Assembly (NCBI GenBank): GCA_964621065.1
Contig: CAZULG010000001.1
Span: forward strand, 11,082-75,081
Direction: 5' to 3'
Length of the DNA stretch: 64,000 nucleotides
Origin: an uncultured Methanosarcinales archaeon
GTDB lineage: Archaea > Nanobdellota > Nanobdellia > Woesearchaeales > UBA583
Below, one piece after another: positions 15,780-54,080 of this stretch; position 1 is the stretch's first letter, and every line of letters begins with the position of its first letter. The notes below the pieces were generated by a model, which made no database searches, had not been told where the DNA came from, and saw nothing but the letters and a program-made list of their open reading frames with translations. A program made the position numbers and the translations under genes.

Positions 15780-15831
15780 TTATAAGAGAATTTAGTTGTT
15801 TTATATTTAAATAGTTACTGGTTTAGACTGA

Positions 15832-17564: not shown

Positions 17565-17622
17565 ATTTTCAAAGAGTTATTAAAACTTATAAATTTTTGT
17601 TATTATTTGAAGAAGAGGGGAA

Positions 17623-18588: not shown

Positions 18589-19915
18589 TCTTTACTCTAA
18601 TTTCTCCTCTCATTAATTTTGGAAGTAAAACATCCCTTGTATTTTGAAGATATTGAATTTCATTTAAGTTATCAATATAATTATTAAAAAAATTTGAATA
18701 TATCTTTTCAAATTCAATTAGTGTATTTTTATTAGAAATCAAAAGAGAGATATTTTCTATTTCAGTAGAACTGATATTTGGTTGTGCTGAACCAATTGCT
18801 TTGTCTCTTATTTTTTTCAAATATTCATTGGAGTTGAAAACAATATATGAGTATAATAATCCATAATCAAAAATTTGTTTAAACATTCCTACTCGTTGAT
18901 TTAATAATAGTTTATAATTTGATTTTTGAACAACTCCTATTTTCCCTATTTCTGCACCAGTCATTGCAATTAAAATATCTTTTTCTTTAATTATAAATTT
19001 TGAATCTAAGTTTTGAATTGAATTATCATCAATAAATCCAGAATCTGTTAGGTTTACAATTCCTCCTGAAATATTTTTTATTTTGATTAATCTACTCTTA
19101 CTATATTTAACAAAATCTTTACTCTTAAATGCATAACCACTCTGGATTTTTACTAATTCTCCTAATCTTCCGGCTCTCCATCCCTTTGGAATTTCTTTTC
19201 CTAATTCTTCACAAAACACCATTTCTCCTCCATTTGATTTATATTCTTCTCCATTTTCATTTGGAAATTCAAAATCAACAAACCACCTTTTAAAAAGTGT
19301 TTTTCCCATCTCTTCAAGTGTTTGATTAATGTGTTTATTCATTTCAATTTTTGAGTCTAAATCACTTAAGATTTTCGCAATAGATTTTTGTTCTTCAATG
19401 GTTGGAGGGAGAGGAATATTGACTTTTTCTAAAATACTAACATATAAGTTTTTTTGAACACTTCCAACTGCCTTTGATTTTAGTTCTTCTCGAATCAATT
19501 TCAAAAAATTTAATATATATTTAGTTTGATTTTTATCAATTGGATTAATATTAATGATTGCTCTGTTTCCACACATAAAATCCTTCAAAACTCCTAATTT
19601 TCCAATTGTCCCAGACTTACTTATTGCAATAGACTCAGGTTCAAACAACTTAGCACTCTTGCCTGCACTTTTGAAACCTTCTTTAGAAAGCTTTCTACTT
19701 GTGTCATAGATAAAAGTATCATTTAAATCATTAACTCTTAACCATTTAATTTCATCACCAAAAAAATTTGGATTCGTTTGAGAAGGATTTACATATCCTT
19801 CTTGGAATTTACAAAGTTCTCCTAACTCCTTAACTTCCCAATCATGAGGGATTTTTCCAATTTCAGTATCTTTAAATTCTGTTTCTTTGTAAGTGTTCAT
19901 TTTAAAATCCTCCAA
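18581..19915 (-). CDS. hsdS: Type I restriction-modification specificity subunit HsdS
   Basis: Two target-recognition halves, each followed by a conserved helical spacer (HINQTLEEMGKTLFKRWFVDFEFP; NTRDVLLPKLMRGEI). Confidence 0.8.
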   Translation of the reverse strand: MEDFKMNTYKETEFKDTEIGKIPHDWEVKELGELCKFQEGYVNPSQTNPNFFGDEIKWLRVNDLNDTFIYDTSRKLSKEGFKSAGKSAKLFEPESIAISKSGTIGKLGVLKDFMCGNRAIININPIDKNQTKYILNFLKLIREELKSKAVGSVQKNLYVSILEKVNIPLPPTIEEQKSIAKILSDLDSKIEMNKHINQTLEEMGKTLFKRWFVDFEFPNENGEEYKSNGGEMVFCEELGKEIPKGWRAGRLGELVKIQSGYAFKSKDFVKYSKSRLIKIKNISGGIVNLTDSGFIDDNSIQNLDSKFIIKEKDILIAMTGAEIGKIGVVQKSNYKLLLNQRVGMFKQIFDYGLLYSYIVFNSNEYLKKIRDKAIGSAQPNISSTEIENISLLISNKNTLIEFEKIYSNFFNNYIDNLNEIQYLQNTRDVLLPKLMRGEIRVKNE

Positions 19916-21363: not shown

Positions 21364-21444
21364 TTTTCTTATTAATATTTATTGCTTATTTTATTAGTAA
21401 CTGTTTTTCCTATTAATATAAAACACCATTCTTTATTAGTAAGA

Positions 21445-22944
21445 CTAAATTTTAAATCCCAATCCTTCTAGATTCTTCTTGATCTCTTCTTCTAACTCAT
21501 CAGATTTTTTAAACTGCTCAGATAACTCATTAACCAATCTCCTCATTTTATCTTCATATGGCTCACTATCCTCCTCTTCATCTTTTACACCAACATATCT
21601 TCCTGGGGTCAGTACAAAATCTTGCTTAGAAACTTCATCAATGCTCACTGATTTACAAAATCCTTTAATATCTTCATAGTCTTGTGAATTTTGCCAACTA
21701 TGCACCGTTTGAGAAATATAGGAAATCTCATCAGAAGACAACTCTCTTAATCTTCTATTAATCATCTCTCCCATATCACGACAATCTACAAAGAGTATCT
21801 CATTTGTTCTCTTCTTATCTCTATTCAAGAACCACAAACATGCAGGAATTCCTGTGTTATAAAATAACTTATCAGGCAATGCAACAATACACTCAACTAA
21901 ATCATCTTTAATGATTTTCTTTCTAATCTCACCTTCTCCAGCAGTATTTGAAGACATAGAACCATTTGATAATACAAAACCAGCTTTTCCTTTTTGAGAT
22001 AAATGATAAATAAAATGTTGAACCCACGCATAATTTGCATTTCCATTCGGAGGCATACCATACACCCATCGAGGATCCTCTTGTAATCTATTAGCCCCCC
22101 AATCTGAAATATTAAACGGAGGATTTGCAATAATAAAATCAGCTTTCAAAGACGAATGTTGATTAAAATGAAAACTATCATCAGCTCTCTCTCCTAAATC
22201 ATGATCTAATCCTCGAATTGCTAAATTCATTTTACACAATTTCCAAGTAGTAGGATTACTTTCTTGACCATATATTGACAAATCTCCAACTCTTCCACCA
22301 TGAGCCTCCACAAATTTCTCACTCATTACAAACATTCCTCCACTTCCACACGCAGGATCATAAATTTTCCCCTCATAGGGTTCTAAAATCTCAACTAAAA
22401 GTTGAACAACGCTATCAGGAGTATAAAACTCTCCTCCGCCCTTTCCCTCAGCTGATGCGAATTTTCCAATAAAGTATTCATAAATTCTTCCCAAAATATC
22501 TTTACTCTCTTCATACGATTTTCCAGAATCAATTGAATGAATCAAATCAACAACTTCTCCAAGAACAACCTTATTCAACTCAGGTCTTCCATAATTTCGA
22601 GGCAATACATTTCTAAGTGTCTTATTATCCTTCTCAATTGAAATCATAGCATTATCGATAACTTCTCCAATCTCAGGAGTTTTTGCCTTCTCAACAATAT
22701 TTGACCATCTCGCATCTTTAGGAACAAAAAAGACATGATGAGCGAGATACTCATCCTTATCTTCAGGATCTGCATATTCTTCAGTTTTAATTCTCTCATA
22801 AATATTCTCAAAGGAATCAGAAATAAATTTTAAAAATATTAAACCCAAAATAACATGCTTATACTCAGAAGCATCCATATTATTTCTCAACTTATCAGCT
22901 GCAGCCCATAATTTAGCTTCCAATTTTGAATTTTCTTCAACCAT
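21445..22944 (-). CDS. hsdM: Type I restriction-modification methyltransferase subunit HsdM
   Basis: N6-adenine MTase motifs DPACGSGGMF (motif I) and IANPPFN (motif IV), plus the HsdM N-terminal domain. Confidence 0.9.
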   Translation of the reverse strand: MVEENSKLEAKLWAAADKLRNNMDASEYKHVILGLIFLKFISDSFENIYERIKTEEYADPEDKDEYLAHHVFFVPKDARWSNIVEKAKTPEIGEVIDNAMISIEKDNKTLRNVLPRNYGRPELNKVVLGEVVDLIHSIDSGKSYEESKDILGRIYEYFIGKFASAEGKGGGEFYTPDSVVQLLVEILEPYEGKIYDPACGSGGMFVMSEKFVEAHGGRVGDLSIYGQESNPTTWKLCKMNLAIRGLDHDLGERADDSFHFNQHSSLKADFIIANPPFNISDWGANRLQEDPRWVYGMPPNGNANYAWVQHFIYHLSQKGKAGFVLSNGSMSSNTAGEGEIRKKIIKDDLVECIVALPDKLFYNTGIPACLWFLNRDKKRTNEILFVDCRDMGEMINRRLRELSSDEISYISQTVHSWQNSQDYEDIKGFCKSVSIDEVSKQDFVLTPGRYVGVKDEEEDSEPYEDKMRRLVNELSEQFKKSDELEEEIKKNLEGLGFKI

Positions 22945-33265: not shown

Positions 33266-36200
33266 ATGAATTATCAATTTCTATTTTTAAAAAAATTGTA
33301 TCTTTTTTTTGCATTTTTTGTTCTCTTCTCAATCATCTTAGCGCCTCAGAGTTATGCTATTTGTGAAGTAACATCATTTATTAATCAAACTACTCCATCT
33401 CCTCAGGATAGATCTTGCTCTTCAGATGATGGGTATGTTATTACAGATATTACAGGAGATATTTACTGTAGTAATGACCCATTCAATCCTGGAGATTTTG
33501 AGTTTAAAAAAATAACAATTGAAAATTCAAATATTAACTTTATCAATTGTAACTTTAAATATGCAAGTGGAGCATCTGAAGAAATCGATATTTCAAATTC
33601 AACAATTGCTGGATATGGACTAAAGTTTGAATCACCATCTTCTATTGAAAATAATTTTATTTCAGAATTTACAAATGATTCAACAAATTCATATTATGGT
33701 TTTGAGAATAATTTATTCGATATTTACAAAGGAAATGACTCAACACAAGTGTTTGCTCAAGGTGTTGATATTAAAAGAGGTTTTTCAATTCAAAATACTT
33801 CAAGTGGAAATTTTACGAGTATTTCTAAATTTAATACATTAAAAACAATTCCCGATGTAATTGGAAGTGTTGATATGTATCATGTGTATGTGCCATTTCA
33901 ATCGATAACTAATAGTAGTGCAAATAATGATTTTGATAAATCATACAACATTGAATTTGATTTTGATAGTTCAATTGACTCATTGAATTTCTCTTATTCT
34001 AATTTTTCCTCCCTTGATGTTATTCAAGAAGTTCAGATTCCAAAAAACTATCCTCCAACACCCCTCATTGCTCAATATATGTATAATCCTACAACAAATT
34101 ATCAAGAAATTGAAATTAATTTTGATGAATATGTTCAATCGTTAAATATAACAATACTTGATTCAACAAATCAAGAAGTTTTTAATTATTCAGGTGGAGG
34201 ATTAAAAAATATCAGTTTAGAAAATCTTCCTTTTGATTTAAATGAGAGTGAAGAATATGAAGTTCAATTTGAATACATTGATTATTTTTCAAACGCAGAT
34301 TTGAAAAGTATTATTTTAAAATCACCAAGTATTAATAACACAGAGTTTGAAGATGAGTTTTCATTAAATTATATATTTAACCAATCATCAACTGCAACGT
34401 TAGATGCAACGCTGCAAATTGAACCAACAGCAATCTCAACTCCACTCTCCTCACTAGAATTCTCGTCAACTTCACTCTCAAGCCCATTATTTAATATTAC
34501 AAATTCAACTCAAATAACATTTAACTCAAGCTCAATATTTACAATTCCAACAAACTCAAGTTTCTATCAACCTCACAAAGGAGTTATTTCATCTTCTGCG
34601 TTTAATTCATCTCCTGTTGTACAACTCGATAATTCTTCATTTGCTCAATCAACACGTAATAGAGATGGAAATTTTCAATATTCAATTTCTACTCCTAGAA
34701 ATGTATTTGAGATTTTAAACAATACTAAAATCACACCTCAATTTCCTGAAGATATTTATTTTAATAAATCATTTACACTTGAAGCATTATATCTTCAAAC
34801 AAGTGATAATTCACTCATATCTCCCTCCTCGTGTACTATTTACTACAACACACTAACCCCAACACAAACCGTTCAAAATATGACCTTTCAACCATCTCTT
34901 TCAACATTTAATACTTCAATATTATTCAGAGAGTTTTACCCACTCCAACAACCCTTAACTATTCAATGTTCAAATGAACTTGGACTTGAGAATGTATCTA
35001 ATACATTTACAATTAATCAAACAACCCAACCAATTGATAATTTTACAAGTGATATCTCTTACAATCCTAAAAGCCCAGGATCATTTACAACAATTGAAAA
35101 AGAGCTCAATATTAGTATTTCATCTCAAGGTTCTCAAAATATTAACTCTAATTTTGATAATGAATACTCAGTTATGATTTCTCGAATTGAATATTTAAGA
35201 GAGGGATGGAATACGAGCAGAAATTTAACAAATTGGATCAATATTGGAAAAAATGAAGAAGCAAGATTTTCGCATAGCGATCTGAACTATTCTAAATCAA
35301 TTAGACTTGATTTAGAAAATTCTTCAACTCAACAATTAAATAATAGTTTCATATTTAGAGATATTAAAGATGAAAATGGAGATGCAATTTCTTTATTTGT
35401 TATTGTAAAATCTTGTGTACCACCGTATTCAAATGAAGCATGTGAATTTTTCTCTAACTCATCTCAATTTTATATCTTTCAAGACTCAACTCCTCCACTG
35501 CTTTATGATTTTGCGCTTAGAAATATGACCAATGATGATAATTTTTACATAAGAATTAATGTTGATGATTTAGAAAGTGATATTGAATACGCAAATATGA
35601 GATTTTCAAATGCACATAACACCTCAGACTCATTCTCCCTTCCACTCACAAATTACATTAGTGAAGAACTTGGAATTCAAAATGCACCATTAAATAGTAT
35701 CTCATCAATTGAAGAAGGAATTTTATATAATCTCTCAATTAATACTTCAAATAACAATAACATTGCAAATGAAAATCTTGATATTCAAAACCAACTGCTT
35801 CTTGATAACCAGCCGCCTAGTAATTCAAGTCTTCAATTACTCGATACATCTTTATACAATACTTCACATAATAGATTTTACACTAACAATGGAACTCAAG
35901 TTAAGTTTAATATAACATCTGGATTTGATAATTTTATTGGATATCAAAATAATAGTGGAATTAGTCACTACAATCTTACACTATATTCTATGTCAAATGA
36001 TTGCTCAATTCGAGAAAATCAATCAAACTCAATATCAAACAATATTAGTGATAATCAAACCCAAATTATAACTCTCAATATGACTCAAGACACGTGTAAT
36101 GAGCTTGAACTTGTTGTGTTTGATAACGCTGGAAATCAAGAAGTTGTGGATACACTTGAAATAGTTGTTGATACAACCCCTCCAACATTTAATAATGTAG

Positions 36201-39200
36201 ATGGACAACTCAAAATATCACCTATAGGCTCTAACAGCAAATTTTTTAACAGAGATAATCTCAACAAAGACTCAGTTTTATTTAGTTATCAATACGATAT
36301 AAGTGATGATTTAACACCTTTAAAGGAAATCACAGTTAATTTGTATGAGAAACTTAATACAACTGGAGCATCTTCTAATTTAGTTAAACAACTTAATGTC
36401 TCAACTGATTCAAAACAAATTGATTTTACGCTTAGTAATTATTCATTTAAAGATAATCGAAAGTATAAAATTGGAATTGTTGCAGAAAATTTTGCTCAAC
36501 TGCAAACTCCTCAAATTGAATCTTCTGAAATATTTCTAGGATTAACATCCTCTCTCAATATTACACCAAAAGGATTTTTACGAGAAGATGATAATTCATT
36601 TTATTACTCACCACAATTTCTCAATGGAGCTAATTATCCACTTGAATTTAATAATAATAATCAAGCAGATGTAAGTTGTTCTCTTAATACAATTATTCAA
36701 AATTATTCTCTAAGTGATACAAATCAATGCAGTTTAAGTCCAGATAGTTCAATTCTCTCTTGTCAAGCATCTCAAAGTGATATTGAGCAATACGAATACG
36801 TTATTGCAAATTGTTTCATCAGTAATGTTGAAGAAGATGTTCAAGAATATTTCTCTAAAAATATCTCATTTACAACTCTTAATCAAACAAGTAGAGCAGA
36901 TATTGATTTTCAAGTTATCCCAAATAGAACATTTTTCTTTGATAATGAGACAATTGGATTTAATTTTACAACAAAAAATGATAGAGATGATGCTACATAT
37001 TTATTAGAGCAAACACTCAACTCCCCCACAAATAATATTAGTTCAATGAAATTTAATCAAAAAGGACAAAATTTAACACGAGATAATTTGAGTAATTTTA
37101 ACACCTCAATCACACCAACTGCGTCTCAATCTTTTTTCATATTTAATAATTCATATAATAAAACTTCACCTGTGCTCAATTTTACATATAATGGACTCAT
37201 TCCAATATATGAATTTAAATTTAATAATTCTATAAATCAATCACAAATTAACTTGTTAATAGAAAATTTTTTAAGTGAAAATCAAAATGTTGAAGATAAA
37301 CTAACTACTAATTTAACAGTTAATCTCACAGCACCTATCACTAATAGTTTTACTCTTAACACTTCAAATTTTAATAGAAAATTAGACTTTGATACAAGCA
37401 TTATTGAACACGAATTTATGATTCCTAATTTGAATAATAATCAACTCACATTTGAAGCATTAATTGATCAGAGTAATAAATTTGAGGATATTTATTTGAA
37501 AAATTTAAGCACTTACACGTCTTACTTAAACTATAGCACTTCTAATACATTTAATTTTGAATTTTTTGATTATTTCTCATTTGATAATAATGTGACATTC
37601 TCATTCAATTCAACTGATGAGCCAGATGAGCTGCAACTAAACTCATCTCAAAGTTTTAATTTGACACTTGATCCAACTCAAATTAACAAAATTAATTTAT
37701 CTAAATTCATCATTAACAACAATACACAAATTCCTAGCAGTCTCTATTCTATCTCAACACAAATCTCAAATACTCCTTCAACGCTTGAATACAGTTTAAA
37801 CAATAATTCTAAAAATACAGTTGAAGAAGAGTTAATGCTCTATTTAAATGATGGAATAACTAATTCTGAGCAAACAATTGATGTAGTTATGAGTGATAAT
37901 TTTGGATCCTCAGTTTCATTTGAATTAAATTTAAATTGGAATTTAAGTCAAATTAATAGCAGTAGTTATGATATGTCTGAATTCAATACAAATATTTCAA
38001 ATTTCATTACAAAAAAGCAATCATCTTGGTACATTGATTTTGGTGTGGAGCAGAATATAATCTCTCAAATCTCATTTGAAATCGAAAATTCAACAGTTGA
38101 ATATCCTCTCAATATAGATGGTAAAGTGAATGATTCAATTTATACTCTTGCATTTACAAAACAAATTTATGATGAGCTCCATAACAAGTATTTCAATGAA
38201 GATGTTTATGAAGTAGATATCTCAACCACATACACAACTCCTTTTGATATTGAATTTACAGTTAATGATACAATAGAGTTTGATTTTGATGTGAATGAAA
38301 ATACTATTTCAGATAGATTTGACATAGATTTAGATAATAATGGTATTAATGATTTAATACAATCAATAATCTATAATAAAAGTCTTGTGTTCAATATTCC
38401 TACTTCAAATGTAGAAGAAACATTTAATCTTACAAATACGAGTTATTTTAATATCTCATCTGATGTATTTAATTCAAATATTATAATTTCATGGAATGAT
38501 AACAACTCAAATGTGTGGGACTTTTCTTCAACGTATGTGAATATAGAAGAAGTTGAAATTGAAAATTTTAATAAAGTTGGTTCAAGAATGAGCATTGATA
38601 AGTTCCCTAAATTTGATTCAAAAAAATCAATTCAAGTTCCAAAAATTTCTCAAAATAGTGAGTTACAATATTGTATAGGAAATAACGAAAATCTTCAAAC
38701 TTCTAGTAGTTGTAGCGGTAGTGATGAATATCTTGTTGAGAGTTGTGACTCATCAATTGGTGGAGGAATTGAATGTGTTGAAGAGTCTAATAGCTTGACA
38801 TTTACAAATCTCTCATTTACAACTATTGAGACCATTTGCAGTTCTTGTGAAGAAAGTAATGATGACTCCTCTGATGATTCTTCTGGAAATGATAATGATG
38901 GAAGTTCTGGAGGAGGTTCTAGCAGTGGTGGCTCTTCAAGTGGTGGAGGCGGAGGAAGTTCTGGAGGAGGATTTGTAACACAACCCGATATTGAAGAAAA
39001 TAAATCAGATGAGGATGAATCTCAACAAGATGAAGAAAATGGTAGCAATAATGAACCCGAAGAAGTAGAAGAAGTTGATGAAAATGATACTCAAACAACT
39101 GAAGATTCTGATAATGAAAACAATAACAATAATGAAGAAAATCAAACAACTACTTCTGAAGAAAATGAACAAGAAAATGCTCAAGATGAAGTTCCCACTA

Positions 39201-39790
39201 CACCTGAAGAAGAGTCTTCAATGTCTACAATATTAATAGCAGCAGTAATTATTTTGCTACTAATAGTTGCTATTGTTGGTGTTTATTTATATCAACAAAA
39301 GAAGAAAAAGAAAAGAACATCAGCTCTTAGTGTTAAAAATTATAAACAACAAAGTAGCCTATCTAACGAAAAAACACAAAGACCTTTAACTTCTCTAACA
39401 CTTAGAGAAAGAGAAGAATTTTTAACTAAAATTGGGCCATTAATCTATAAAAAAACTCCGTTAAGTGTAATTGCAAAGAAATATAATATTTCTACTAAAA
39501 AAGATATTCAAGAACTATTAAATATGATATATGTAGACACATTTATTGAAAACATTAAAAGAGAACTTGAGAAAAAAACATTTATGCTTACTCCTCAAAT
39601 TATCTCAGAGTTGAAAAATACAAAGTGGTTTAATTCTCTCAATCCATGCTCTGACAATTCTTCATATTTAAGAGATTTAGGCTTTTTCATATCTCAATAC
39701 AAAATAACTCATGTGTTCAACTCAAATGAATTAAAAGAAATAATTACTGATTCTATTTATGAAGAAATATCATCTCAAAATGAAAACTAA
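33266..39790 (+). CDS. Giant (2174 aa) cell-surface protein: signal peptide, huge N/S/T-rich ectodomain, Ser/Gly and acidic stalk, one TM anchor, ~150-aa cytoplasmic tail
   Basis: N-terminal LFFAFFVLFSIILAPQSYA signal and hundreds of N-x-S/T sequons. Near the C-terminus GSSGGGSSSGGSSSGGGGGSSGGG then a poly-acidic stretch. TM ILIAAVIILLLIVAIVGVYLY is followed by a KKKKKR stop-transfer and a tail containing TPLSVIAKKYNISTKKDIQELL. Confidence 0.6.
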   Translation: MNYQFLFLKKLYLFFAFFVLFSIILAPQSYAICEVTSFINQTTPSPQDRSCSSDDGYVITDITGDIYCSNDPFNPGDFEFKKITIENSNINFINCNFKYASGASEEIDISNSTIAGYGLKFESPSSIENNFISEFTNDSTNSYYGFENNLFDIYKGNDSTQVFAQGVDIKRGFSIQNTSSGNFTSISKFNTLKTIPDVIGSVDMYHVYVPFQSITNSSANNDFDKSYNIEFDFDSSIDSLNFSYSNFSSLDVIQEVQIPKNYPPTPLIAQYMYNPTTNYQEIEINFDEYVQSLNITILDSTNQEVFNYSGGGLKNISLENLPFDLNESEEYEVQFEYIDYFSNADLKSIILKSPSINNTEFEDEFSLNYIFNQSSTATLDATLQIEPTAISTPLSSLEFSSTSLSSPLFNITNSTQITFNSSSIFTIPTNSSFYQPHKGVISSSAFNSSPVVQLDNSSFAQSTRNRDGNFQYSISTPRNVFEILNNTKITPQFPEDIYFNKSFTLEALYLQTSDNSLISPSSCTIYYNTLTPTQTVQNMTFQPSLSTFNTSILFREFYPLQQPLTIQCSNELGLENVSNTFTINQTTQPIDNFTSDISYNPKSPGSFTTIEKELNISISSQGSQNINSNFDNEYSVMISRIEYLREGWNTSRNLTNWINIGKNEEARFSHSDLNYSKSIRLDLENSSTQQLNNSFIFRDIKDENGDAISLFVIVKSCVPPYSNEACEFFSNSSQFYIFQDSTPPLLYDFALRNMTNDDNFYIRINVDDLESDIEYANMRFSNAHNTSDSFSLPLTNYISEELGIQNAPLNSISSIEEGILYNLSINTSNNNNIANENLDIQNQLLLDNQPPSNSSLQLLDTSLYNTSHNRFYTNNGTQVKFNITSGFDNFIGYQNNSGISHYNLTLYSMSNDCSIRENQSNSISNNISDNQTQIITLNMTQDTCNELELVVFDNAGNQEVVDTLEIVVDTTPPTFNNVDGQLKISPIGSNSKFFNRDNLNKDSVLFSYQYDISDDLTPLKEITVNLYEKLNTTGASSNLVKQLNVSTDSKQIDFTLSNYSFKDNRKYKIGIVAENFAQLQTPQIESSEIFLGLTSSLNITPKGFLREDDNSFYYSPQFLNGANYPLEFNNNNQADVSCSLNTIIQNYSLSDTNQCSLSPDSSILSCQASQSDIEQYEYVIANCFISNVEEDVQEYFSKNISFTTLNQTSRADIDFQVIPNRTFFFDNETIGFNFTTKNDRDDATYLLEQTLNSPTNNISSMKFNQKGQNLTRDNLSNFNTSITPTASQSFFIFNNSYNKTSPVLNFTYNGLIPIYEFKFNNSINQSQINLLIENFLSENQNVEDKLTTNLTVNLTAPITNSFTLNTSNFNRKLDFDTSIIEHEFMIPNLNNNQLTFEALIDQSNKFEDIYLKNLSTYTSYLNYSTSNTFNFEFFDYFSFDNNVTFSFNSTDEPDELQLNSSQSFNLTLDPTQINKINLSKFIINNNTQIPSSLYSISTQISNTPSTLEYSLNNNSKNTVEEELMLYLNDGITNSEQTIDVVMSDNFGSSVSFELNLNWNLSQINSSSYDMSEFNTNISNFITKKQSSWYIDFGVEQNIISQISFEIENSTVEYPLNIDGKVNDSIYTLAFTKQIYDELHNKYFNEDVYEVDISTTYTTPFDIEFTVNDTIEFDFDVNENTISDRFDIDLDNNGINDLIQSIIYNKSLVFNIPTSNVEETFNLTNTSYFNISSDVFNSNIIISWNDNNSNVWDFSSTYVNIEEVEIENFNKVGSRMSIDKFPKFDSKKSIQVPKISQNSELQYCIGNNENLQTSSSCSGSDEYLVESCDSSIGGGIECVEESNSLTFTNLSFTTIETICSSCEESNDDSSDDSSGNDNDGSSGGGSSSGGSSSGGGGGSSGGGFVTQPDIEENKSDEDESQQDEENGSNNEPEEVEEVDENDTQTTEDSDNENNNNNEENQTTTSEENEQENAQDEVPTTPEEESSMSTILIAAVIILLLIVAIVGVYLYQQKKKKKRTSALSVKNYKQQSSLSNEKTQRPLTSLTLREREEFLTKIGPLIYKKTPLSVIAKKYNISTKKDIQELLNMIYVDTFIENIKRELEKKTFMLTPQIISELKNTKWFNSLNPCSDNSSYLRDLGFFISQYKITHVFNSNELKEIITDSIYEEISSQNEN

Positions 39791-44354: not shown

Positions 44355-45689
44355 CTATCCAACACACAAATCTTCTTTTAATATTTCAAGAACTTCTTTA
44401 TGCATTGATTTAGGCAAACCTATTGAAATATATCGCGTTCTTCCATATCGTCCTTTGGAAACAACTTTTTCATTCACAATTCCTAAAACATCTAATTCGA
44501 CAACAATATCAGAAATTCTCCTCAATGTTAAAGATTGTATTCTCAAATCTTTTGTCAACTTATTATAAAAGTCAAACACTGAACCTGTTGTTGTTGGCTC
44601 AATCACTTGAGATTTTTTATTAGTAACTAAGTTATGCTTTTCTTTCATAGAGGTTTTAACAATTGAATATAATACCAATTGATAATGTTTTGGTTGTGAT
44701 TTAATAATGTCAATGATTCTATTTTTCTCACTCTTTTTATCAGCTTTATCAATATGGAGTGGAACAACATATGCACTCCCTTCTCGCTCTGCAATCTCGC
44801 CTGCATACTTTAATAATTCAAGTGCACGTCTTACATCTCCATGTTCTCTTGCCATGTATGCTGAGCATCGTGGAATAACTTCACTATCTAACACATTTTC
44901 TCTAAATGCTAAGTGTGCTCTATCGTTTAAAATATCTTGAATTTGTGTTGCATTATATGGTACAAATACGAGCTCTTCTTCGTTCAATGACGACTTAACA
45001 CGAGCATCCACACTATCCATAACAGTTAAATCATTTGTAATCCCAACTAAACACACTTCTGAACTTTTTAAATCAGGATTCAAACGAGTTAAATTATATA
45101 ACACATCGTCTCCTGCCTTTTTAATAAGAGCGTCTATTTCATCAAGAACTAAAATAATTGTTTGCTTCTCACTATCAAGTGCACGATATAAATCTTTATA
45201 TAACTCATTTGTAGAGTGACCGGTGTCTTTTCTCTCAACTCCAAACATTTTTAATATTTCAAGAAGCATTCTGTATTCAGTATCAGCCACTCGCTTTAAT
45301 TTGCAATTAATATTTAAGATTTTAAGAGGAATTTCTCGAGAATTTGCAACATTTCTCATTTTATTAAGCACATGATTGATACATAATGTTTTTCCTGTTC
45401 CTGTTTTTCCATATACAAATACATTAGAAGGTTTTTCATTTCTCAACGCAGGTGCGAGCATTTTCGCTAACTCATTTAAATATTCACTTCTGTGTTGAAT
45501 TCTTGGAGGCTGAAAATTAGACTGCAGAATTGATTTATCTTTAAAAATTGGTTTTGATGACATAAATTCCTCAAAATAATTATCCAGATCATCTTTAATT
45601 TCTTCTTGAATATTTGTATTTTTTTCATCAATATATGTGTTAGAAAAAGTTGTCAAGTCACTTGATTGTTCCATAAGAAATATAAACAT
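44355..45689 (-). CDS. orc1: Orc1/Cdc6 replication initiator
   Basis: AAA+ Walker A VFVYGKTGTGKT, Walker B ILVLDEIDAL, sensor motifs and a C-terminal winged helix. Confidence 0.85.
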   Translation of the reverse strand: MFIFLMEQSSDLTTFSNTYIDEKNTNIQEEIKDDLDNYFEEFMSSKPIFKDKSILQSNFQPPRIQHRSEYLNELAKMLAPALRNEKPSNVFVYGKTGTGKTLCINHVLNKMRNVANSREIPLKILNINCKLKRVADTEYRMLLEILKMFGVERKDTGHSTNELYKDLYRALDSEKQTIILVLDEIDALIKKAGDDVLYNLTRLNPDLKSSEVCLVGITNDLTVMDSVDARVKSSLNEEELVFVPYNATQIQDILNDRAHLAFRENVLDSEVIPRCSAYMAREHGDVRRALELLKYAGEIAEREGSAYVVPLHIDKADKKSEKNRIIDIIKSQPKHYQLVLYSIVKTSMKEKHNLVTNKKSQVIEPTTTGSVFDFYNKLTKDLRIQSLTLRRISDIVVELDVLGIVNEKVVSKGRYGRTRYISIGLPKSMHKEVLEILKEDLCVG

Positions 45690-45859
45690 TTCTACTGTTT
45701 ATAAAACTTTCTTGTTTCATTTAATTGTATCAAAAATGATTATAACTAATAGTTATTATTTTACAATTTTGTATATAAAAATTCAGATGTTTTTAATAAT
45801 GAGTGTTTTAACTTGACAACAGATGAAAATACTTATAAAATAATAAATCTATATATTTT

Positions 45860-47439: not shown

Positions 47440-47591
47440 CAGCTTTTCAAAAAAACAAGGTCGCTCTTTTCAATCGTTCGTTGTATTAATCTTAAGATGA
47501 ATATTTGTGCAAAAAAATTGTTTTCGCTAAGCTCAAACTCCTAATTCTAGTAGCGAAACTACTAATATCTACTTCAAGTAACGAAGTTACT
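47440..47591. repeat. Conserved 3'-flanking element shared with the ABCE1 downstream region (30711-30820)
   Basis: ...CGTTCGTT...TTGTGCAAAAAAAYTGYTYTCGCTA..CTCAA.C.CCTAA.TTC...AGYAACGAAGTTRCT is shared; the terminal hairpin 47577-47591 spans the DP2 stop codon; a second hairpin TAGTAGCGAAACTACTA lies at ~47550-47566. Confidence 0.5.
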
Positions 47592-49854
47592 TTCCAAAAT
47601 AATCTCCAAGTCCTTTTTGTTTCTCAAGCTCCTTTCCAAATACTCCTTCCATTCTCAAATTTACAAGTTCTAAACTCTCAACAATGTATGGATCAACTCG
47701 AAAATCTTTTGTGATTTTAAATGATGGAGCTAAATATTTTTTAATTGAACCTTCATGAATTGTGAAATTAATAGAAGTTGAATAACAATTAGAACATCTC
47801 CCATTCAATGGAGGCCTTCTGTAAATAGTATTACAACTTGTACATCGAAAACTCTGCATTCCAAATTTTCTCAAATTTCCTTTAATGTCTTTCATAAAAT
47901 GCTTATCAATCACTAGCTCTCCCACTTTATTCTCATCAACAGCTCGAATTTTTCGCCCAATTTCTAATTGTTCTGATAATTTTTCTGCCATTGAAGGAAG
48001 TGTTTTATATGAAGAACACAAAATCGTATCATTCATATCATCAGTATCATGCGTAAAAAAATATCCTAAATATTCCTCATCTTTAATTTCTTTCCCTATT
48101 CTATTCTCAACATGCTCAATTTTTACACTTTTAGGAGGAGCGTATTCTCTACAAGCTTTATAAAAATTAAGAGGATAAAATGGAACAATATCCATCCCAT
48201 GAACCTCATCATCAATCTGATCCAAATACAAATGAGAAGTTAATACTAATGATACATCCATTGTCTTAGAACCTCTTCTATTTGGTAAAAATTCACGTGA
48301 CCCGTTTAATAACCCATCTAATAAAAGCATCACTCCGTTCTCATCTCCATCTAAATTACGCCTCTGAGCAGCGTGCCAAACAGGGTGAGAAAAACAACCT
48401 TGAGATTTTGAATATCCAATAATTCTCCCCGTAATACCTGCAGAAGTATGAGGAGCAAGCCCAATTATTATATGCCCAATTGTATCTTCTTTTGATTTAA
48501 AATTATAGTATGGTTGTTCTAAATAAATTTTCTCAAGCAACTCATCAATGAATTGTCCTGTTTTTACAATAATATCACTTGCTTTTTCTTCAAACCCTTC
48601 ATCACAATCAGGAAGTATAACATCTTGAGGAAAAATTTCAACAATTTGATTCTCATCTGTAAGTTCCTCTCCTTTGTAATCATGTGTGTATCCCATCTCT
48701 TTGAGTTTATCAATTGATGTTAAAATTTCTTTTGGCTTAAAGTGCGTAATTCCCATCTCAATCATATCATATCGAATCGTACCATCTTTATTGACATACA
48801 AATCATACTTCTCTCTCAAAAACGCTTTTTCTAAAATTTCAATTGATTTATGCTCATTTGCAGTTCCACGGATTCCTTTCACTATTTTAGGAAGTTGAGT
48901 AAGTTTCAAATTCTCTCTCACTTGTTTAATATAAGGCTCTAAATCTAAAGACATACGTTTGTATTGAACTGCTAATTCATCCTCTTTATTTACTCGAGCA
49001 CCTGTGTATCTATTAAAATATTGAGGAGTACATACTCCTCCACAATATACACATTTTGGATATACACATTCCTCCCCGCAACTCTGACACTCCATTAATC
49101 GAAATTCTCCACTGACCTCACCACCTTCATACGCCTCAATAATATTTCTCATTCGATTTTGTATAACATCTGAGCTGATTTCATCATCTCCAAATCGTCT
49201 TTCAATTTGAACTGACTTACCATTTCCAATTGTAAATAATCCTTGTGGACGACCATCTAGTTTTCTCAATTTTGCCTTCTCAGGACGCCCCATTCTTGCA
49301 CCAATATATGTTCCTGCTTTATCACGAATCTCAATTGATGAATACACATTAATAATTTCAAGCATGGACTTATTCAAATGTTCTCTACATAATTGCTCAA
49401 TATTTGAAAAGTGTGATATATATTTCTCAACTAATGATTGACTTTTAATTTCTCTCTCATCCTTAACATCAATCCACTCTAAAATACCACAATTAGATAT
49501 AAAAGCTAGAAATGAGTTGTCTTGAAACAAAATGGTATCAACTCCCTCTTCTTTTCCCATCCATTTGTGCTCAATTCCTAAATGCTCAAATTTATCTTTA
49601 TTACGTGTTTTAATTCCAAATAACTTTAACTCCTTATCAACATACAAATTTTGAAGTTCTCCAAACACATCAACCCCACGTTGAGGACTTAACTCATTAA
49701 AATAAAAAATATAGTGTGGATGCAGGGATACATCAAATTTTTGTGAGAGCATAATTGCATCCTTTAAAGATGGTTTAGAATAGAGAGGATTAGAAACATA
49801 CTGCTCGTATTTACTTTTGAGCGTTGAATTCAAAATGTAAAAAGAAAAATCCAT
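47587..49854 (-). CDS. DNA polymerase II (PolD) large subunit DP2, central and C-terminal portion only
   Basis: IGARMGRPEKAKLRKL, zinc fingers CQSCGEECVYPKCVYCGG and CTSCNTIYRRPPLNGRCSNC, catalytic region GLAPHTSAGITGRIIG...AAQRRNLDGDENGVMLLLDGLLN. At 755 aa it is far shorter than canonical DP2, and a stop codon lies 2 codons upstream of the ATG. Confidence 0.85.
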   Translation of the reverse strand: MDFSFYILNSTLKSKYEQYVSNPLYSKPSLKDAIMLSQKFDVSLHPHYIFYFNELSPQRGVDVFGELQNLYVDKELKLFGIKTRNKDKFEHLGIEHKWMGKEEGVDTILFQDNSFLAFISNCGILEWIDVKDEREIKSQSLVEKYISHFSNIEQLCREHLNKSMLEIINVYSSIEIRDKAGTYIGARMGRPEKAKLRKLDGRPQGLFTIGNGKSVQIERRFGDDEISSDVIQNRMRNIIEAYEGGEVSGEFRLMECQSCGEECVYPKCVYCGGVCTPQYFNRYTGARVNKEDELAVQYKRMSLDLEPYIKQVRENLKLTQLPKIVKGIRGTANEHKSIEILEKAFLREKYDLYVNKDGTIRYDMIEMGITHFKPKEILTSIDKLKEMGYTHDYKGEELTDENQIVEIFPQDVILPDCDEGFEEKASDIIVKTGQFIDELLEKIYLEQPYYNFKSKEDTIGHIIIGLAPHTSAGITGRIIGYSKSQGCFSHPVWHAAQRRNLDGDENGVMLLLDGLLNGSREFLPNRRGSKTMDVSLVLTSHLYLDQIDDEVHGMDIVPFYPLNFYKACREYAPPKSVKIEHVENRIGKEIKDEEYLGYFFTHDTDDMNDTILCSSYKTLPSMAEKLSEQLEIGRKIRAVDENKVGELVIDKHFMKDIKGNLRKFGMQSFRCTSCNTIYRRPPLNGRCSNCYSTSINFTIHEGSIKKYLAPSFKITKDFRVDPYIVESLELVNLRMEGVFGKELEKQKGLGDYFGK

Positions 49855-49898
49855 ACTCTACACAAATAAAAAAGACTATATAAAAATATCGTATCTGT

Positions 49899-50807
49899 TC
49901 AACTCAGTGCTTTTTCTTTTAATAATTTAGAAATTTCTTGAAGTTTAAGCTCAACTCTGTGCAGATAATTTAAAATCATCATATGAGAGCCAAATTCTTG
50001 TGTTTTAGTTTTTTTATATAACTCTTTTTTAAACATTTGTTGCAATTCTTCAATTTCTTCAATACTCTTCTCAGTTTTTAGATTTTGAGAAGATTTAATC
50101 TTTCTACCACCACTAATTGTGAATTTTTCAGATTCAAACTCACTAAACTCCTTTCCCAATAATTGAATTTTTTTATTTAACACATCAATATGTTTATTAT
50201 GCTCAATTTGCAGAACAGATCCCTCGTATTTTTCTTTTAAAAAATCTTGCAATTGTTCATGGTACCACTTATACAATCCTGTTTCTAATTGTAAAATTGT
50301 CTCAATTGAGTTGTATTCAAGCAAAGACTTTGGAAATTTAAATTTTGTTGAAAAATACTTTAGAGCTTCTTCATATGAAAATCCTACTGCTTTAATACAA
50401 TGCTCTTTTTGAATTGTATTTCCTATTAAATATAATCGTACTTCGTCTTGAAATCCTCCTGCAATGCAGCGAAGAGTAGCTATAATATTGTGAATTTGAT
50501 ATTTTAAATAATATGTATATAATAATTCCTTTAACTCAGAATTTGCAGCTTTATACACCTTTTCATAAATAAGTGTTGCATACGAATTTGTAAAATGTTC
50601 AACAATTCCAATAGAGTCTTTTTTAATATTTTGTGAATTAATTGAAGAATCAATTGTAAGTTTGGTTGTACCTTTCTCAAGCATAGAAAGTGCCTCTGAA
50701 AACGATGCACGTTGAATTTGAGGGGATGAACACAGCTCATCTAATTCTTGAAATATTACACTAAGTTTTGTTGCAACATACATATCTTTTTGAAATTCTC
50801 TACCCAT
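49899..50807 (-). CDS. Putative A-type ATP synthase subunit C (V-type d-like); assignment by synteny and size only
   Basis: 302-aa helical protein two genes downstream of atpK, in the K-E-C order expected for archaeal atp operons. Confidence 0.35.
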   Translation of the reverse strand: MGREFQKDMYVATKLSVIFQELDELCSSPQIQRASFSEALSMLEKGTTKLTIDSSINSQNIKKDSIGIVEHFTNSYATLIYEKVYKAANSELKELLYTYYLKYQIHNIIATLRCIAGGFQDEVRLYLIGNTIQKEHCIKAVGFSYEEALKYFSTKFKFPKSLLEYNSIETILQLETGLYKWYHEQLQDFLKEKYEGSVLQIEHNKHIDVLNKKIQLLGKEFSEFESEKFTISGGRKIKSSQNLKTEKSIEEIEELQQMFKKELYKKTKTQEFGSHMMILNYLHRVELKLQEISKLLKEKALS

Positions 50808-50876
50808 TTTTTTATTTATTATTTTGTATATGTTTAATTATACATGTTTACTATTTTACTAACTTATCCTATCTTC

Positions 50877-51443
50877 TCAATTACTCACTTGTAAACTACC
50901 TTGAACATCTTCACTAATAATGGAGTATAATTCATCTTTTATATTACATCTCACAATTAAATGTTCTTTTCTGCAAACGATTTCATATTTTTGTATCATT
51001 GAACTGGTTTCAACTGAATTCTTAACAAATGTTTTTTTAAGTTGGGAAATAATTGATTGTGAGAGCATAGATGAAATTGTAAGTTGTAGTTCTTTTTCTT
51101 CTACATTTAATATTTGAGAAGCTCTTGACATAAATACTTTTACAGTTTCAAGAAATCTGCTCTCTATAGATTTACACACTTTTTCTACAACTCTTGAAAT
51201 CTCTTCTTGTTGAGCAGTTTGAATAATATTTTTTGCTTGTTTTTTAGCAGAAGATATTCTTTGTTGTTTATAATGTTCAATATCTAATTCAAACTTCTTT
51301 TTCATTACTTCTTCAAACTCAAAAACACTTTTACTACACTCTTCTCTATACAATTCAAGATTTTTATCAAACTCTTCTTTAAGTTGAGACATTGTAGCAT
51401 CTCTATATTCGTAGAGTTGTTGTTGTAGTGCTGAAGATTTCAT
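50877..51443 (-). CDS. Putative A-type ATP synthase subunit E
   Basis: 188 aa with an N-terminal long coiled-coil and a C-terminal globular domain, directly downstream of atpK. Confidence 0.4.
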   Translation of the reverse strand: MKSSALQQQLYEYRDATMSQLKEEFDKNLELYREECSKSVFEFEEVMKKKFELDIEHYKQQRISSAKKQAKNIIQTAQQEEISRVVEKVCKSIESRFLETVKVFMSRASQILNVEEKELQLTISSMLSQSIISQLKKTFVKNSVETSSMIQKYEIVCRKEHLIVRCNIKDELYSIISEDVQGSLQVSN

Positions 51444-51580
51444 TTTGTCTAAGCTATATAATTGATTCTATATATTGTTCTTTGTATTTCATTGAATGCA
51501 ACTTTTATTAAACTCATTAACTAATACGAATAATTCAAGATTAATAAAAATTGTAAATGTAGATAATTGAGGTTCCTCAA

Positions 51581-51814
51581 CTACATTCCCATAATTAAAA
51601 ATGCAATAACGAATCCAAAAATTAAAATTGTCTCTGGTAAAACTGCAAATAAAATTGCTCGTCCCATAAGACTTGGATTTTCACTAACTGCTCCAATTGC
51701 TGCACTTAATGTGTTCTTTTGACCCATTCCTGTTCCAATTGCTGCAAGTCCTAATGCTAGTCCTGCTCCAATTGCTTTCAATCCTAATTCACTCATAATC
51801 ATATGTTCTGCCAT
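51581..51814 (-). CDS. atpK: A-type ATP synthase proteolipid subunit K (c subunit)
   Basis: 77-aa two-helix hairpin with a Gly-rich helix 1 (GAGLALGLAAIGTGMG) and a helix 2 PET motif with the conserved ion-binding Glu. Confidence 0.8.
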   Translation of the reverse strand: MAEHMIMSELGLKAIGAGLALGLAAIGTGMGQKNTLSAAIGAVSENPSLMGRAILFAVLPETILIFGFVIAFLIMGM

Positions 51815-52097
51815 ATAACCAACTTTAATGAATAACCCTTTTTAAATCTTTTGTAGATTTGGCTCTCTTTGAGAACTGAGAAGAAATAAACTTCGAATGA
51901 TTTTTTTCTATAAATTTTAATAATTAAAAACTTTAATTCAATAATTTGAATAATAAAAAGATTATGTTAGCAATTTTTATTCTCAAATTATACAAAAATA
52001 TACTCAAATCTATTTATTTCTTCTTTATAATATTATTTTTTGAACTTAAGTTTCTTTTACACACTCTCTTAAATGCTAAGAAAGCACTTTCAACATT

Positions 52098-52110
52098 ATC
52101 TCGAAGAGAT
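52098..52110 (-). terminator. Stop-proximal hairpin with UUC triloop immediately 3' of thrS
   Basis: ATCTC-GAA-GAGAT lies 6 nt downstream of the thrS stop, followed on the sense strand by a U-rich tract. Confidence 0.3.
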
Positions 52111-52115
52111 TTTAA

Positions 52116-54080
52116 TTAATTCTTTATTTCTCTCTTCTCTCGCTCTTCTTCAATTTGTGCTATAAACTCATCAAGAGTTGTTGTAAACTCTTCATTTTTC
52201 CCATTAACAATTTTTCGAGTTCTCACTGAAATTGTACTATTTTCAATGTCTTTATCTCCTAAAATGAGCATATAATTTGGCATCTCGCTCTCAAGAGCCA
52301 TTGCAATTTTTTTACCAACTCCTTCGTGTGAATAATCTCTCTCAACTCTAAATCCCCTCTTGAACAACTCATCATACACACTATTTGAATACTTTTGGTG
52401 CCTATCAGCCACAGGAATAATTTTTATTTGATTAGGTGATAACCACAGAGGGAATTTTCCAGCAAAATGTTCAATCATAATTGCCATAAAGCGCTCAACA
52501 CTTCCCAAAACTGCTCTGTGAATCATCACAGGCCTCTCACTATGACCTTCTTTATTCTCAAATGTCAAATCAAATCTCTCGGGCAAATTAAAATCAAGTT
52601 GAATGGTCGCAGTTTGATGCACTCTTCCCAGACAATCTTTAATTCTAAAGTCAATTTTTGGACCATAAAAAGCACCATCTCCTTCACAAATCTCATACGT
52701 TTTATTATTTCTCTTAATTGCATCAGCCAATGATTTCTCAGCTAAATCCCAAATCTCATCACTCCCTAGTTTTTCATCAGGTCGAGTTGATAATTCGATT
52801 TCATAACTCATATCAAATGTGTTATAAATATATTCTACAAGTTGAAGCGCTTTGTCAATCTCATCTACTATTTGTTCTTTTGTACAGAAAATATGAGCAT
52901 CATCTTGACAAAACTTACGAACTCTTGTGAGTCCACTTAAAGCACCCGATAATTCATTTCGATGAAGTGCTCCAAAATCAGCAATCCTTAGTGGTAAATC
53001 TCGATATGATTTAAACTCGTTTTTAAATATTAAACAATGAGATGGACAATTCATCGGTTTGAGAGAATATTCTTGTTCTTCAATTTTCATAATAAACATA
53101 TCCTCTTTATAATGTTCCCAATGACCTGATGTTTCCCATAATTTTTTATTGAACATATTTGGAGTCATCACTTCTCTAAAATCATGCTCTCGATACTGTT
53201 CTCGAACAAAATTTTGAAGCTCTTTATAAATTGTAAATCCTTTTGGTAAAAAAAATGCCATTCCAGGAGCATATTCATGATTCATAAATAAATGTAATTT
53301 TCTACCTACAACTCGATGATCTCGCTTTTTTGCTTCTTCAATCATAGCATAGTATTCGTCCATCTCACTCTTTTTCCAAAACGCAGCTCCATACACACGA
53401 GTGAGTTGTTTATTTTCACTATTTCCTCTCCAATATGCACGAGTGAGCTTTTCAAGTTTAAACGCTTTAATAAGTCCTGTTCGTGGAAGATGTGGACCTT
53501 TGCATAAATCTGAAAACTCACCTTGAGTGTAGAATTGTAATTTTCCATGCTCAACTGCTCCTTCAAGTTGCTCATCTTCATTTAATGAGTGAGAGATAAT
53601 TCCTTGAATAATCTCAAGCTTGTAGGGATTGTCTTTGAAAAGTGCTTGTGCTTCATCAATTGTTTTATACTCTTTTGTAATTTCAAGATTTTCCTTGATA
53701 ATTTTTCGCATCTCCTCTTCAATCATTGAAAGGTCGCTCTCTTTCAAATCATCGCAATCAACATCATACCAAAATCCTCTCTCAATTGGAGGACCAATTG
53801 TAATTTTAGTGTGAGGGAATAATCTGAGTAGTGCTTGAGCAAACACGTGCGCAGTTGTGTGATTGAGAATTCCTTTAGACTCACTATCTTTAGATGTTAG
53901 AATTTGAAGTGTTGAATCACTCGTGATGGTGGTCGTTAAATCAACTAATTTTTCATTGTTTAACTTTCCTGCAATTGCTTGTCTTGCAAGACCTTCACTA
54001 ATATGCTTTGCAACATCAAACACACTAGGAGCATGTTCAAATTGCAATGTTTTACCATCACTAAGTGTAATTTCAACCAT
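52116..54080 (-). CDS. thrS: Threonyl-tRNA synthetase
   Basis: N-terminal TGS domain, editing-domain HTTAHVFAQAL motif, and class II catalytic core with the ThrRS zinc site (FRNELSGALSGLTRVRKFCQDDAHIFC; HRAVLGSVERF). Confidence 0.9.
   Translation of the reverse strand: MVEITLSDGKTLQFEHAPSVFDVAKHISEGLARQAIAGKLNNEKLVDLTTTITSDSTLQILTSKDSESKGILNHTTAHVFAQALLRLFPHTKITIGPPIERGFWYDVDCDDLKESDLSMIEEEMRKIIKENLEITKEYKTIDEAQALFKDNPYKLEIIQGIISHSLNEDEQLEGAVEHGKLQFYTQGEFSDLCKGPHLPRTGLIKAFKLEKLTRAYWRGNSENKQLTRVYGAAFWKKSEMDEYYAMIEEAKKRDHRVVGRKLHLFMNHEYAPGMAFFLPKGFTIYKELQNFVREQYREHDFREVMTPNMFNKKLWETSGHWEHYKEDMFIMKIEEQEYSLKPMNCPSHCLIFKNEFKSYRDLPLRIADFGALHRNELSGALSGLTRVRKFCQDDAHIFCTKEQIVDEIDKALQLVEYIYNTFDMSYEIELSTRPDEKLGSDEIWDLAEKSLADAIKRNNKTYEICEGDGAFYGPKIDFRIKDCLGRVHQTATIQLDFNLPERFDLTFENKEGHSERPVMIHRAVLGSVERFMAIMIEHFAGKFPLWLSPNQIKIIPVADRHQKYSNSVYDELFKRGFRVERDYSHEGVGKKIAMALESEMPNYMLILGDKDIENSTISVRTRKIVNGKNEEFTTTLDEFIAQIEEEREKREIKN

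Follow-up and report, generated by a model that had tools for sequence, protein, structure and literature searches.

A naturally split catalytic subunit of DNA polymerase D, conserved across a Woesearchaeota-type clade of archaea

Background

Most archaea depend on DNA polymerase D (PolD) as their essential replicase; among DNA polymerases, it alone is built on the two-barrel fold known from cellular RNA polymerases. The gene analysed here, for its catalytic large subunit DP2, is located in a 64,000-nucleotide (nt) stretch of archaeal DNA (contig CAZULG010000001.1, positions 11,082 to 75,081, assembly GCA_964621065.1), referred to as the window, and it is short: its product, of 755 amino acids (aa), lacks the N-terminus of the subunit. 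The locus raises the question of whether the missing part of an essential enzyme is encoded elsewhere, has been lost, or was merely disrupted in this sequence. A first-pass annotation, made from the sequence alone, had proposed a split gene, whose N-terminal part must be encoded elsewhere or be absent, and had regarded split essential genes as a hallmark of some reduced archaeal genomes. The proposal was followed up by profile, structure and homologue searches, and by comparison of related genomes.

Results

The gene encodes the C-terminal part of DP2

The open reading frame (ORF), called DP2-C here, runs on the minus strand from an ATG at 49852-49854 to a TAA at 47587-47589. Pfam comparison detects the catalytic family PolC_DP2_cat (PF24846) over its whole profile at aa 323-625 (E=1e-107), and the central family PolC_DP2_central (PF24844) only at profile positions 147-365 of 372 (E=6.5e-28); the N-terminal KH-like family PF03833 is absent from the ORF. 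Among PDB structures, the product matches DP2 of Thermococcus kodakarensis (6KNB_B, E=1.7e-139) from residue 515 onward, and DP2 chains of Pyrococcus abyssi are matched as well. An AlphaFold2 (AF2) model of DP2-C, with a predicted local distance difference test score (pLDDT) of 82, resembles P. abyssi 6t8h_B with a template modelling (TM) score of 0.78, and D502 and D504 are the counterparts of P. abyssi D956 and D958. DP2-C is the C-terminal ~60% of the catalytic subunit of this archaeal replicative polymerase, and the ORF, Pfam and PDB evidence bear out its description as a 755-aa DP2 product without N-terminus.

Both zinc fingers and the DGDE-type centre are retained, as the first-pass annotation had recognized; the second of these fingers, Zn-III, lies towards the C-terminal end, within a domain predicted to bind DP1, and is followed by a putative PIP box, a motif known at the DP2 C-terminus (PMC6355029). 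A complete central domain is not contained in this one chain, in which the six strands of the first double-psi beta-barrel (DPBB-1) do not occur together with the motif K386/R389/K392 (P. abyssi numbering).

Residue 1 of DP2-C aligns with about residue 468 in the nearest relatives of full length (48 aligned, ~1180 aa), with residues ~480-490 in P. abyssi DP2 and ~483-495 in T. kodakarensis DP2, and with position 435 of the 1125 positions of the NCBIfam model NF003103, of which the ORF spans 435-1125. Judged by these alignments, the missing part amounts to ~465 residues in the numbering of the relatives, or ~480-490 in that of Pyrococcus and Thermococcus. The original estimate, which had the product start at about residue 375 with 375-400 codons missing, was too low by ~90-115 residues, the deficit being ~465-490. 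With a part of the subunit only, DP2-C scores below the equivalog cut-offs of both NF003103 (691 vs 1269 bits) and TIGR00354 (577 vs 702 bits).

At the 5' side, an in-frame TAG two codons before the ATG, correctly noted at first reading, leaves no possible extension of the ORF. The upstream neighbour is an ATPase subunit gene, as also reported, confirmed by its AC39 match; it is not a part of the polymerase, and its stop codon is separated from the ATG of DP2-C by 44 nt.

The short form is common to all close homologues

DP2-C was used to search 5.8 billion proteins. The ~66 closest homologue clusters, at 49-77% identity and from sources labelled Nanoarchaeota or Woesearchaeota, are all 720-800 aa long, except two which carry inteins. 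All are devoid of PF03833 and start within a few residues of one position, typically with M-D-[F/L/Y]-S. Full-length DP2 proteins (~1170-1200 aa, containing PF03833) are found only at 46% identity to DP2-C or less. Alignment of 70 sequences revealed that RMGRPEK, R498, R499, D502, G503, D504 and E505 are invariant in the C fragments, as are G185, R187-K193 and K195, and the Zn-III cysteines C671, C674, C687 and C690.

Two annotated starts in this set are mis-called: P0004 is ~30 codons too long, with a GTG start (L001, 10001-10090), and P0010 is 15 codons too short (L002, about 9956-10000). Both sequences do contain the conserved start M-D-[ILF]-S.

Separate N-terminal fragments end where the C fragments begin

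Residues 1-461 of P0068, the closest full-length relative, were used as query for the N-terminal part. Many proteins of 464-474 aa were returned, located on long contigs and containing PF03833 and only the beginning of PF24844. About 50 N proteins share a clade signature that reads YGEFSENNH.L.PNGYCEEEWALELIEKIN, after which come a few K/N residues and the stop; 48 of them are 452-484 aa long, ending near the break. These fragments terminate with ...GYCEEEWALELIEKINxxK, at a point where full-length proteins read YGDF...GYCEEWW and continue. Their mean column identity is 77%, and GGxRLRYGR and ERPGK are invariant.

When the two sets are aligned to full-length sequences, N end and C start coincide (...EKAIVSMFG | SLDF... 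in P0068), with zero overlap, gap or added sequence between them. The coverage of NF003103 is likewise complementary, 7-439 for the N fragment and 435-1125 for the C fragment, and N fragment P0177 matches T. kodakarensis DP2 at 10-481 and P. abyssi DP2 at 11-478. The halves tile the ancestral DP2 at a conserved break point.

Both halves score under the NF003103 cut-off (e.g. 691 and 555 bits, vs 1269), and for this reason both are annotated as 'hypothetical protein'; records so named include MCH8520121.1 (P0002), MCH8519361.1 (P0177) and MCB9370494.1 (P0010).

The two halves occur in the same genomes at unlinked positions

Five related genomes were found to hold both halves. In ERZ25074195, contig ctg52608 (1,094,732 bp) carries the N gene at 211315-212724 and the C gene at 970727-973129, 758 kb apart. 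On CAYGPK010000005.1 (99,647 bp) the N gene, at 66077-67489, and the C gene, at 50885-53155, lie on the same strand, ~12.9 kb apart, with several other genes between them. The metagenome-assembled genome (MAG) PBR18_bin24 encodes the halves on different contigs, as LAT82_01260 (N) and LAT82_05190 (C), both 'hypothetical protein'; a second MAG likewise holds ACOCXG_00770 and ACOCXG_00450, the two halves, on different contigs. The complete 1.54-Mb chromosome CP060218.1 contains the N gene (L015), and for C fragment P0241 (USN43572.1) the longest contig on record has 1,540,096 bp, the length of this chromosome. No N half was found within 10 kb of the C gene on the contigs of P0004 and P0010.

When GTDB species representatives were scanned with the alignment of N fragments, 80 loci were obtained. 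In 15 of them, at 70% identity or more, the ORF stops 0-9 codons past the end of the homology and the flanks do not contain the C part; in the other 65, at 59% or less, N and C parts form one continuous ORF. Among the loci returned, no second, full-length DP2 was detected for the 15 split genomes. The gene for DP1 lies upstream of DP2 on the same strand in 63 of the 65 full-length Woesearchaeota loci (L024-L088), and none of 16 split-clade loci has it next to DP2-N in this orientation (L003, L004 and L009-L023 compared); the only split-clade locus with DP1 is L003, where it is found 3.7 kb off and on the opposite strand. Genomes of the split clade have lost the DP1-DP2 operon, and their three PolD genes are scattered.

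Trees were built by neighbour joining (NJ) with midpoint rooting. In that of the C region, split C fragments and full-length forms fall on opposite sides, with P0117 as the lone exception; in that of the N region, the 50 sequences bearing the signature are monophyletic. The conserved motifs and this monophyly indicate that both halves are under purifying constraint and have a single origin; most simply, DP2 was broken once in an ancestor, the three PolD genes becoming dispersed. The split is a character of a clade of free-standing Woesearchaeota-type genomes of ~0.8-1.5 Mb, and not the peculiarity of an extremely reduced one.

P0117 was considered as an independent second split and rejected. 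Its locus, L008 (FWPV01011304.1, 2710-6262), shows a 378-aa N ORF, a 256-nt gap and the 719-aa ORF of P0117 directly behind DP1; this is a disrupted full-length gene, by frameshift, pseudogene formation or assembly error, outside the split clade.

Several contigs carrying DP2 halves belong to records titled 'uncultured Methanosarcinales archaeon' or 'Bdellovibrionales bacterium' (L012, L013, L019, L020 and other loci; P0069), which are probably mislabelled or contaminated bins.

The N-terminal half of this organism was sought within the window. In a tblastn comparison of 48 N-termini against all six frames only the 41-aa overlap with DP2-C itself was detected, and a profile hidden Markov model (HMM) run against every stop-to-stop frame gave no match (best E=1.6). 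DP1 is also absent from the window, and is present in the related split genome ERZ25074195 (L003). Of the two outcomes left by the first-pass annotation, a part encoded elsewhere is favoured over its absence by the N fragments in the genomes of relatives, and the product of this organism's N gene is expected to have ~468 aa, to end with ...GYCEEEWALELIEK... and to share about 85-92% identity with MCH8519361.1.

The break falls inside the central domain

In P. abyssi DP2, the N-terminal domain extends over aa 1-285, the central one over 308-667, the catalytic domain over 668-996 and the C-terminal domain over 997-1270 (PMC4996933). The strands of DPBB-1 are dispersed in the central domain, as beta7-9, the unmodelled strand with K386/R389/K392, beta13 and beta18; the same domain includes a sheet of seven strands (beta10-12 and beta14-17), which four small helices (alpha15-18) interrupt and alpha19-22 flank, and the catalytic D956/D958 belong to DPBB-2 (PMC4996933). 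The loop connecting the two barrels, with R659/K661, comes after the last DPBB-1 strand (PMC6355029).

On this scheme the break, at about P. abyssi residue 480, is inside the central domain, and not at a domain boundary, where alignment with Pyrococcus had been expected to place it. It follows a helix ending in ...GYCEEEWALELIEKIN, at about residue 465-468 in relatives of full length. GGFRLRYGR and GTQLKxERPGK, the latter being the K386/R389/K392 motif, remain on the N fragment; the break separates this motif from D956/D958 and leaves the lysines that bind DNA and the catalytic aspartates on different chains. As the break is internal to the central domain, both polypeptides contribute to barrel 1 and to the adjoining sheet.

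The AF2 model of DP2-C contains, at aa 1-175, four helices, four beta-strands and further helices, which probably represent the P. abyssi elements alpha15-18, beta14-17 and alpha19-22. They are followed by IGARMGRPEKAK, which does not vary among 70 sequences. Residues 184-187, at the orphan DPBB-1 strand, are the sole internal stretch of the model with pLDDT <50, as would be expected of a strand deprived of its barrel. When the isolated N fragment was modelled, its N-terminal domain was well predicted and aa 300-472 poorly, which would fit the need for a partner, although as evidence this is weak.

A split pair as the preferred explanation, and its alternatives

These data very probably reflect a single ancestral DP2 gene, broken once in the Woesearchaeota/Nanoarchaeota-type clade and now maintained as a split pair whose products assemble non-covalently. 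In the clade, the subunit is encoded by two unlinked and probably independently transcribed genes, DP2-N (~468 aa) and DP2-C (~755 aa). Each half seems to be a transcription unit of its own, because the genomic contexts differ between genomes and because A/T-rich, TATA-like elements, a weak indication in such A+T-rich DNA, are found 20-35 nt upstream of the start codons of both halves in relatives; independent promoters would follow. DP2-N carries the KH-like N-terminal domain, five of the six DPBB-1 strands and the basic DNA-binding motif GTQLKxERPGK; DP2-C carries what remains of the central domain, the final DPBB-1 strand together with the connecting loop RMGRPEKAK, clamp-2 and its Zn-I, DPBB-2 bearing the catalytic DGD, the Zn-III tail predicted to bind DP1, and a putative PIP box for PCNA. 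Neither half holds a complete two-barrel catalytic centre. Most likely the two associate non-covalently, by fragment complementation, given that no intein sequence is found at the junction, and would form with DP1 a PolD of three polypeptides.

Some points weigh against this explanation. The DP2-N gene of this organism would lie outside the window, its presence being deduced from relatives, the closest of which has a C fragment 77% identical to DP2-C (LAT82_05190); physical assembly and activity are likewise deduced from sequence. The poor model of aa 300-472 may reflect only a shallow alignment of low diversity, and the NJ trees, rooted at the midpoint, have no outgroup or support values. Finally, no published report of a split DP2 was found in the open-access full-text literature, to which the claim of novelty is confined.

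DP2-C could also be a lineage-specific short form, which lost ~465 N-terminal residues and makes up the whole polymerase with DP1. The first-pass annotation had named uniformly short orthologues, with no separate N fragment, as the signs of such a form; the first holds, the orthologues being all ~720-800 aa, and the 64-kb window is free of N-terminal coding sequence, but the second fails, as separate N fragments of 464-474 aa exist and end where the C fragments begin. Because these cognate, highly conserved fragments share genomes with the C fragments, the short form is refuted for the five related genomes; moreover DP2-C holds one of six DPBB-1 strands, and neither the K386/R389/K392 motif nor the KH-like template-binding domain, which makes it very improbable here. 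Still less credit is due to an artefact or pseudogene, whether by frameshift, by an error of sequencing or assembly, or by recent disruption of a normal DP2 gene. Such cases do occur, as in L008, which differs from the present one: DP2-C is preceded by an ATPase gene and not by DP2-N, its start is the same in ~66 clusters that come from independent assemblies, complete chromosomes among them, the halves are 13-758 kb apart where both are mapped, and the catalytic motifs are intact.

Ligation of the halves by a split intein is suggested by the precedent of the family B polymerase (PolB) of Nanoarchaeum equitans, a member of the Nanoarchaeota (PMC4104785), and by the inteins which do occur in the DP2 family (P0007, P0028 and many full-length relatives). 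At the junction, however, N fragments end 0-9 residues past the homology and C fragments begin with M-D-[FLY] at the homologous position, leaving no room for an N-intein of ~100 aa or a C-intein of 35 aa; no conserved Cys/Ser/Thr is present at +1, the 65 full-length relatives are all free of insertions at this point, and DP2-C has no intein Pfam match, so that protein trans-splicing is very unlikely. An origin of the break itself from a split intein or from intein excision was rejected on the same grounds, the junction and the 65 full-length relatives having no intein at this site. The remaining alternative is sub-functionalization, in which the products would act apart, for example DP2-N as a DNA-binding factor, PolB replacing PolD in replication. 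The dispersal of the three PolD genes with loss of the DP1-DP2 operon (0/16 vs 63/65) speaks for it, and Woesearchaeota also carry a bacterial-type PolB (PMC7544198); yet residues which are meaningful only in the assembled two-barrel centre are invariant in both halves, and the halves are kept together in every genome that could be checked. This alternative is improbable, if somewhat less so than the other three.

Inteins in the family occupy two sites, neither of them at the break: one at about aa 500 of DP2-C, in many full-length relatives, the other at ~531-538, in C fragments P0007 and P0028. Loci with an intein near the catalytic loop are L028, L035, L048, L050-L053, L059, L061, L064, L066, L074, L079 and L085.

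Features of the locus and neighbouring genes

The features which define DP2-C and its borders are collected in Table 1. The TATA-like element suggests that DP2-C may have its own promoter and a leaderless mRNA, a weak indication in DNA of ~28% G+C.

Table 1. Sequence features of the DP2-C locus. Positions refer to the window; aa numbers refer to the DP2-C product.
Feature	Position	Strand	Basis
DP2-C, gene for the C-terminal fragment of the PolD large subunit DP2	47587..49854	(-)	ORF, PF24844 (partial) and PF24846, PDB match, AF2
PIP-box-like motif QKGLGDYF, aa 746-753, C-terminus	47596..47619	(-)	sequence; family consensus EKQKxLxxFF
Zn-III finger CTSC-x12-CSNC, aa 671-690, in the predicted DP1-binding C-terminal domain	47785..47844	(-)	alignment
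DPBB-2 catalytic loop RRNLDGDEN, aa 498-506	48337..48363	(-)	alignment, PMC4996933
Zn-I finger CQSC-x8-CVYC, aa 256-271	49042..49089	(-)	sequence, alignment
Last DPBB-1 strand and RMGRPEKAK connecting-loop region	49261..49329	(-)	invariance, alignment with P. abyssi and T. kodakarensis DP2, PMC6355029, pLDDT
Second half of the DP2 central domain, aa 1-175	49330..49854	(-)	AF2 secondary structure compared with PMC4996933
In-frame TAG, two codons 5' of the DP2-C ATG	49858..49860	(-)	sequence
TTTTTATATA, archaeal TATA-box-like element, 22 nt 5' of the ATG	49877..49886	(-)	sequence, 44-nt spacer after atpC
A-type ATPase subunit C (vATP-synt_AC39, PF01992, E=1.8e-13)	49899..50807	(-)	Pfam; marks the 5' boundary of the DP2-C locus

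Genes around DP2-C include Orc1/Cdc6, TBP, aEF-1beta and ThrRS. The Orc1/Cdc6 gene (44355-45689), ~2 kb from DP2-C, adjoins an A/T-rich spacer of 170 nt; no clear or convincing origin-recognition-box repeats were found beside it (44355-45859). On the other side, A-type ATPase genes are represented by K/c (51581-51814) and subunit C, separated by a 188-aa ORF (50877-51443) with no Pfam match, possibly subunit E. The 32 other larger ORFs of the window which were scanned include no gene for ATPase subunits I, F, A, B or D, and the ATPase operon (49899-51814) looks truncated immediately before DP2-C. A single rearrangement breaking both this operon and DP2 was considered and rejected: the adjacency of atpC and DP2-C is absent in other split genomes, and is therefore younger than the split.

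The window also carries a CysRS gene and a type I restriction-modification system (12621-22944), composed of hsdR (12621-15779), hsdS (18581-19915) and hsdM (21445-22944), with a protein combining Schlafen/AlbA_2, HATPase_c_4 and winged helix-turn-helix domains (19897-21363) embedded between hsdS and hsdM. An ORF of 2174 aa (33266-39790, plus strand) has only a sub-threshold RIFIN match and no credible Pfam domain, and may encode a giant surface protein. A scan of the window for bacterial promoters and terminators was uninformative, the host being archaeal.

Discussion

Split polymerases as such are already known; the case described here is a natural split of the PolD catalytic subunit that a Woesearchaeota-type clade has conserved. 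With respect to canonical DP2, of which structures are available for P. abyssi (5IJL, 6HMS, 6T8H) and T. kodakarensis (6KNB), family and fold are the same, the N and C fragments together cover the whole, and the DGD, the RMGRPEKAK loop, Zn-I, Zn-III, the DP1-binding tail and the PIP box are conserved. The differences are the two polypeptides encoded by unlinked genes, the absence of Zn-II and the location of DP1 outside an operon.

In genome arrangement, the parallel is the split PolB of N. equitans, where the catalytic subunit of a replicative polymerase is likewise produced from two distant genes in a Nanoarchaeota-type archaeon (PMC4104785). The polymerase family is another one, however, and the PolB halves bear the pieces of a split mini-intein and are ligated, while no intein sequence is present at the DP2 junction. 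Functionally, the split PolB of Methanobacteriales, two subunits which are not ligated (Kelman et al. 1999, as cited in PMC4104785), is a parallel for the non-covalent complex proposed here; according to the same account it belongs to family B and is proposed to derive from faulty intein excision, a trace of which is missing at the DP2 break. Clade-restricted splits of information-processing genes are also known in DPANN archaea, for reverse gyrase, AlaRS and Dph1/2; the reviews of such genes name reverse gyrase, tRNA synthetases, Dph1/2 and others, and DP2 is not among them (PMC6349945).

A further likeness is with multi-subunit RNA polymerases, in which a two-barrel centre is assembled from separate polypeptides (beta/beta', Rpo1/Rpo2, and the further splits A'/A'' and B'/B''). 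The lysine barrel DPBB-B and the aspartate barrel DPBB-A of these enzymes, corresponding to DPBB-1 and DPBB-2, are mostly on separate chains (PMC4996933). Unlike in RNA polymerase, the DP2 break does not fall between the barrels: the last DPBB-1 strand is on the DPBB-2 chain, and barrel 1 is bipartite. The only fold matches of DP2-C outside PolD are to RNA polymerase chains D/J, and weak (E~1e-2); by the usual chain lettering we take these chains to be beta'.

As to practical consequences, replication-gene surveys, and completeness or marker sets which count DP2, may mis-score the clade as lacking it. For the phylogeny of the group, the split and the dissolved DP1-DP2 operon together provide a clean shared derived character of a Woesearchaeota subgroup. 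For the enzyme, the conserved split suggests that PolD tolerates fragment complementation at about residue 480 (P. abyssi numbering), and a defined split site is of use in engineering and in structural studies of DPBB-1, a flexible region. Models that derive replication and transcription from a common origin invoke the beta/beta' arrangement, of which the split represents a living analogue.

A more speculative extension, which we consider rather unlikely as it stands, is that the active site forms only when a dissociable DP2-N docks on DP2-C/DP1 and that, the three genes being dispersed and separately transcribed, the supply of DP2-N could act as an on/off control of replication in host-dependent cells. 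If this were true, the split DP2 would be a natural DNA polymerase counterpart of the beta/beta' partition of RNA polymerase, and the clade would be a ready experimental system for testing the common origin of PolD and the two-barrel RNA polymerases.

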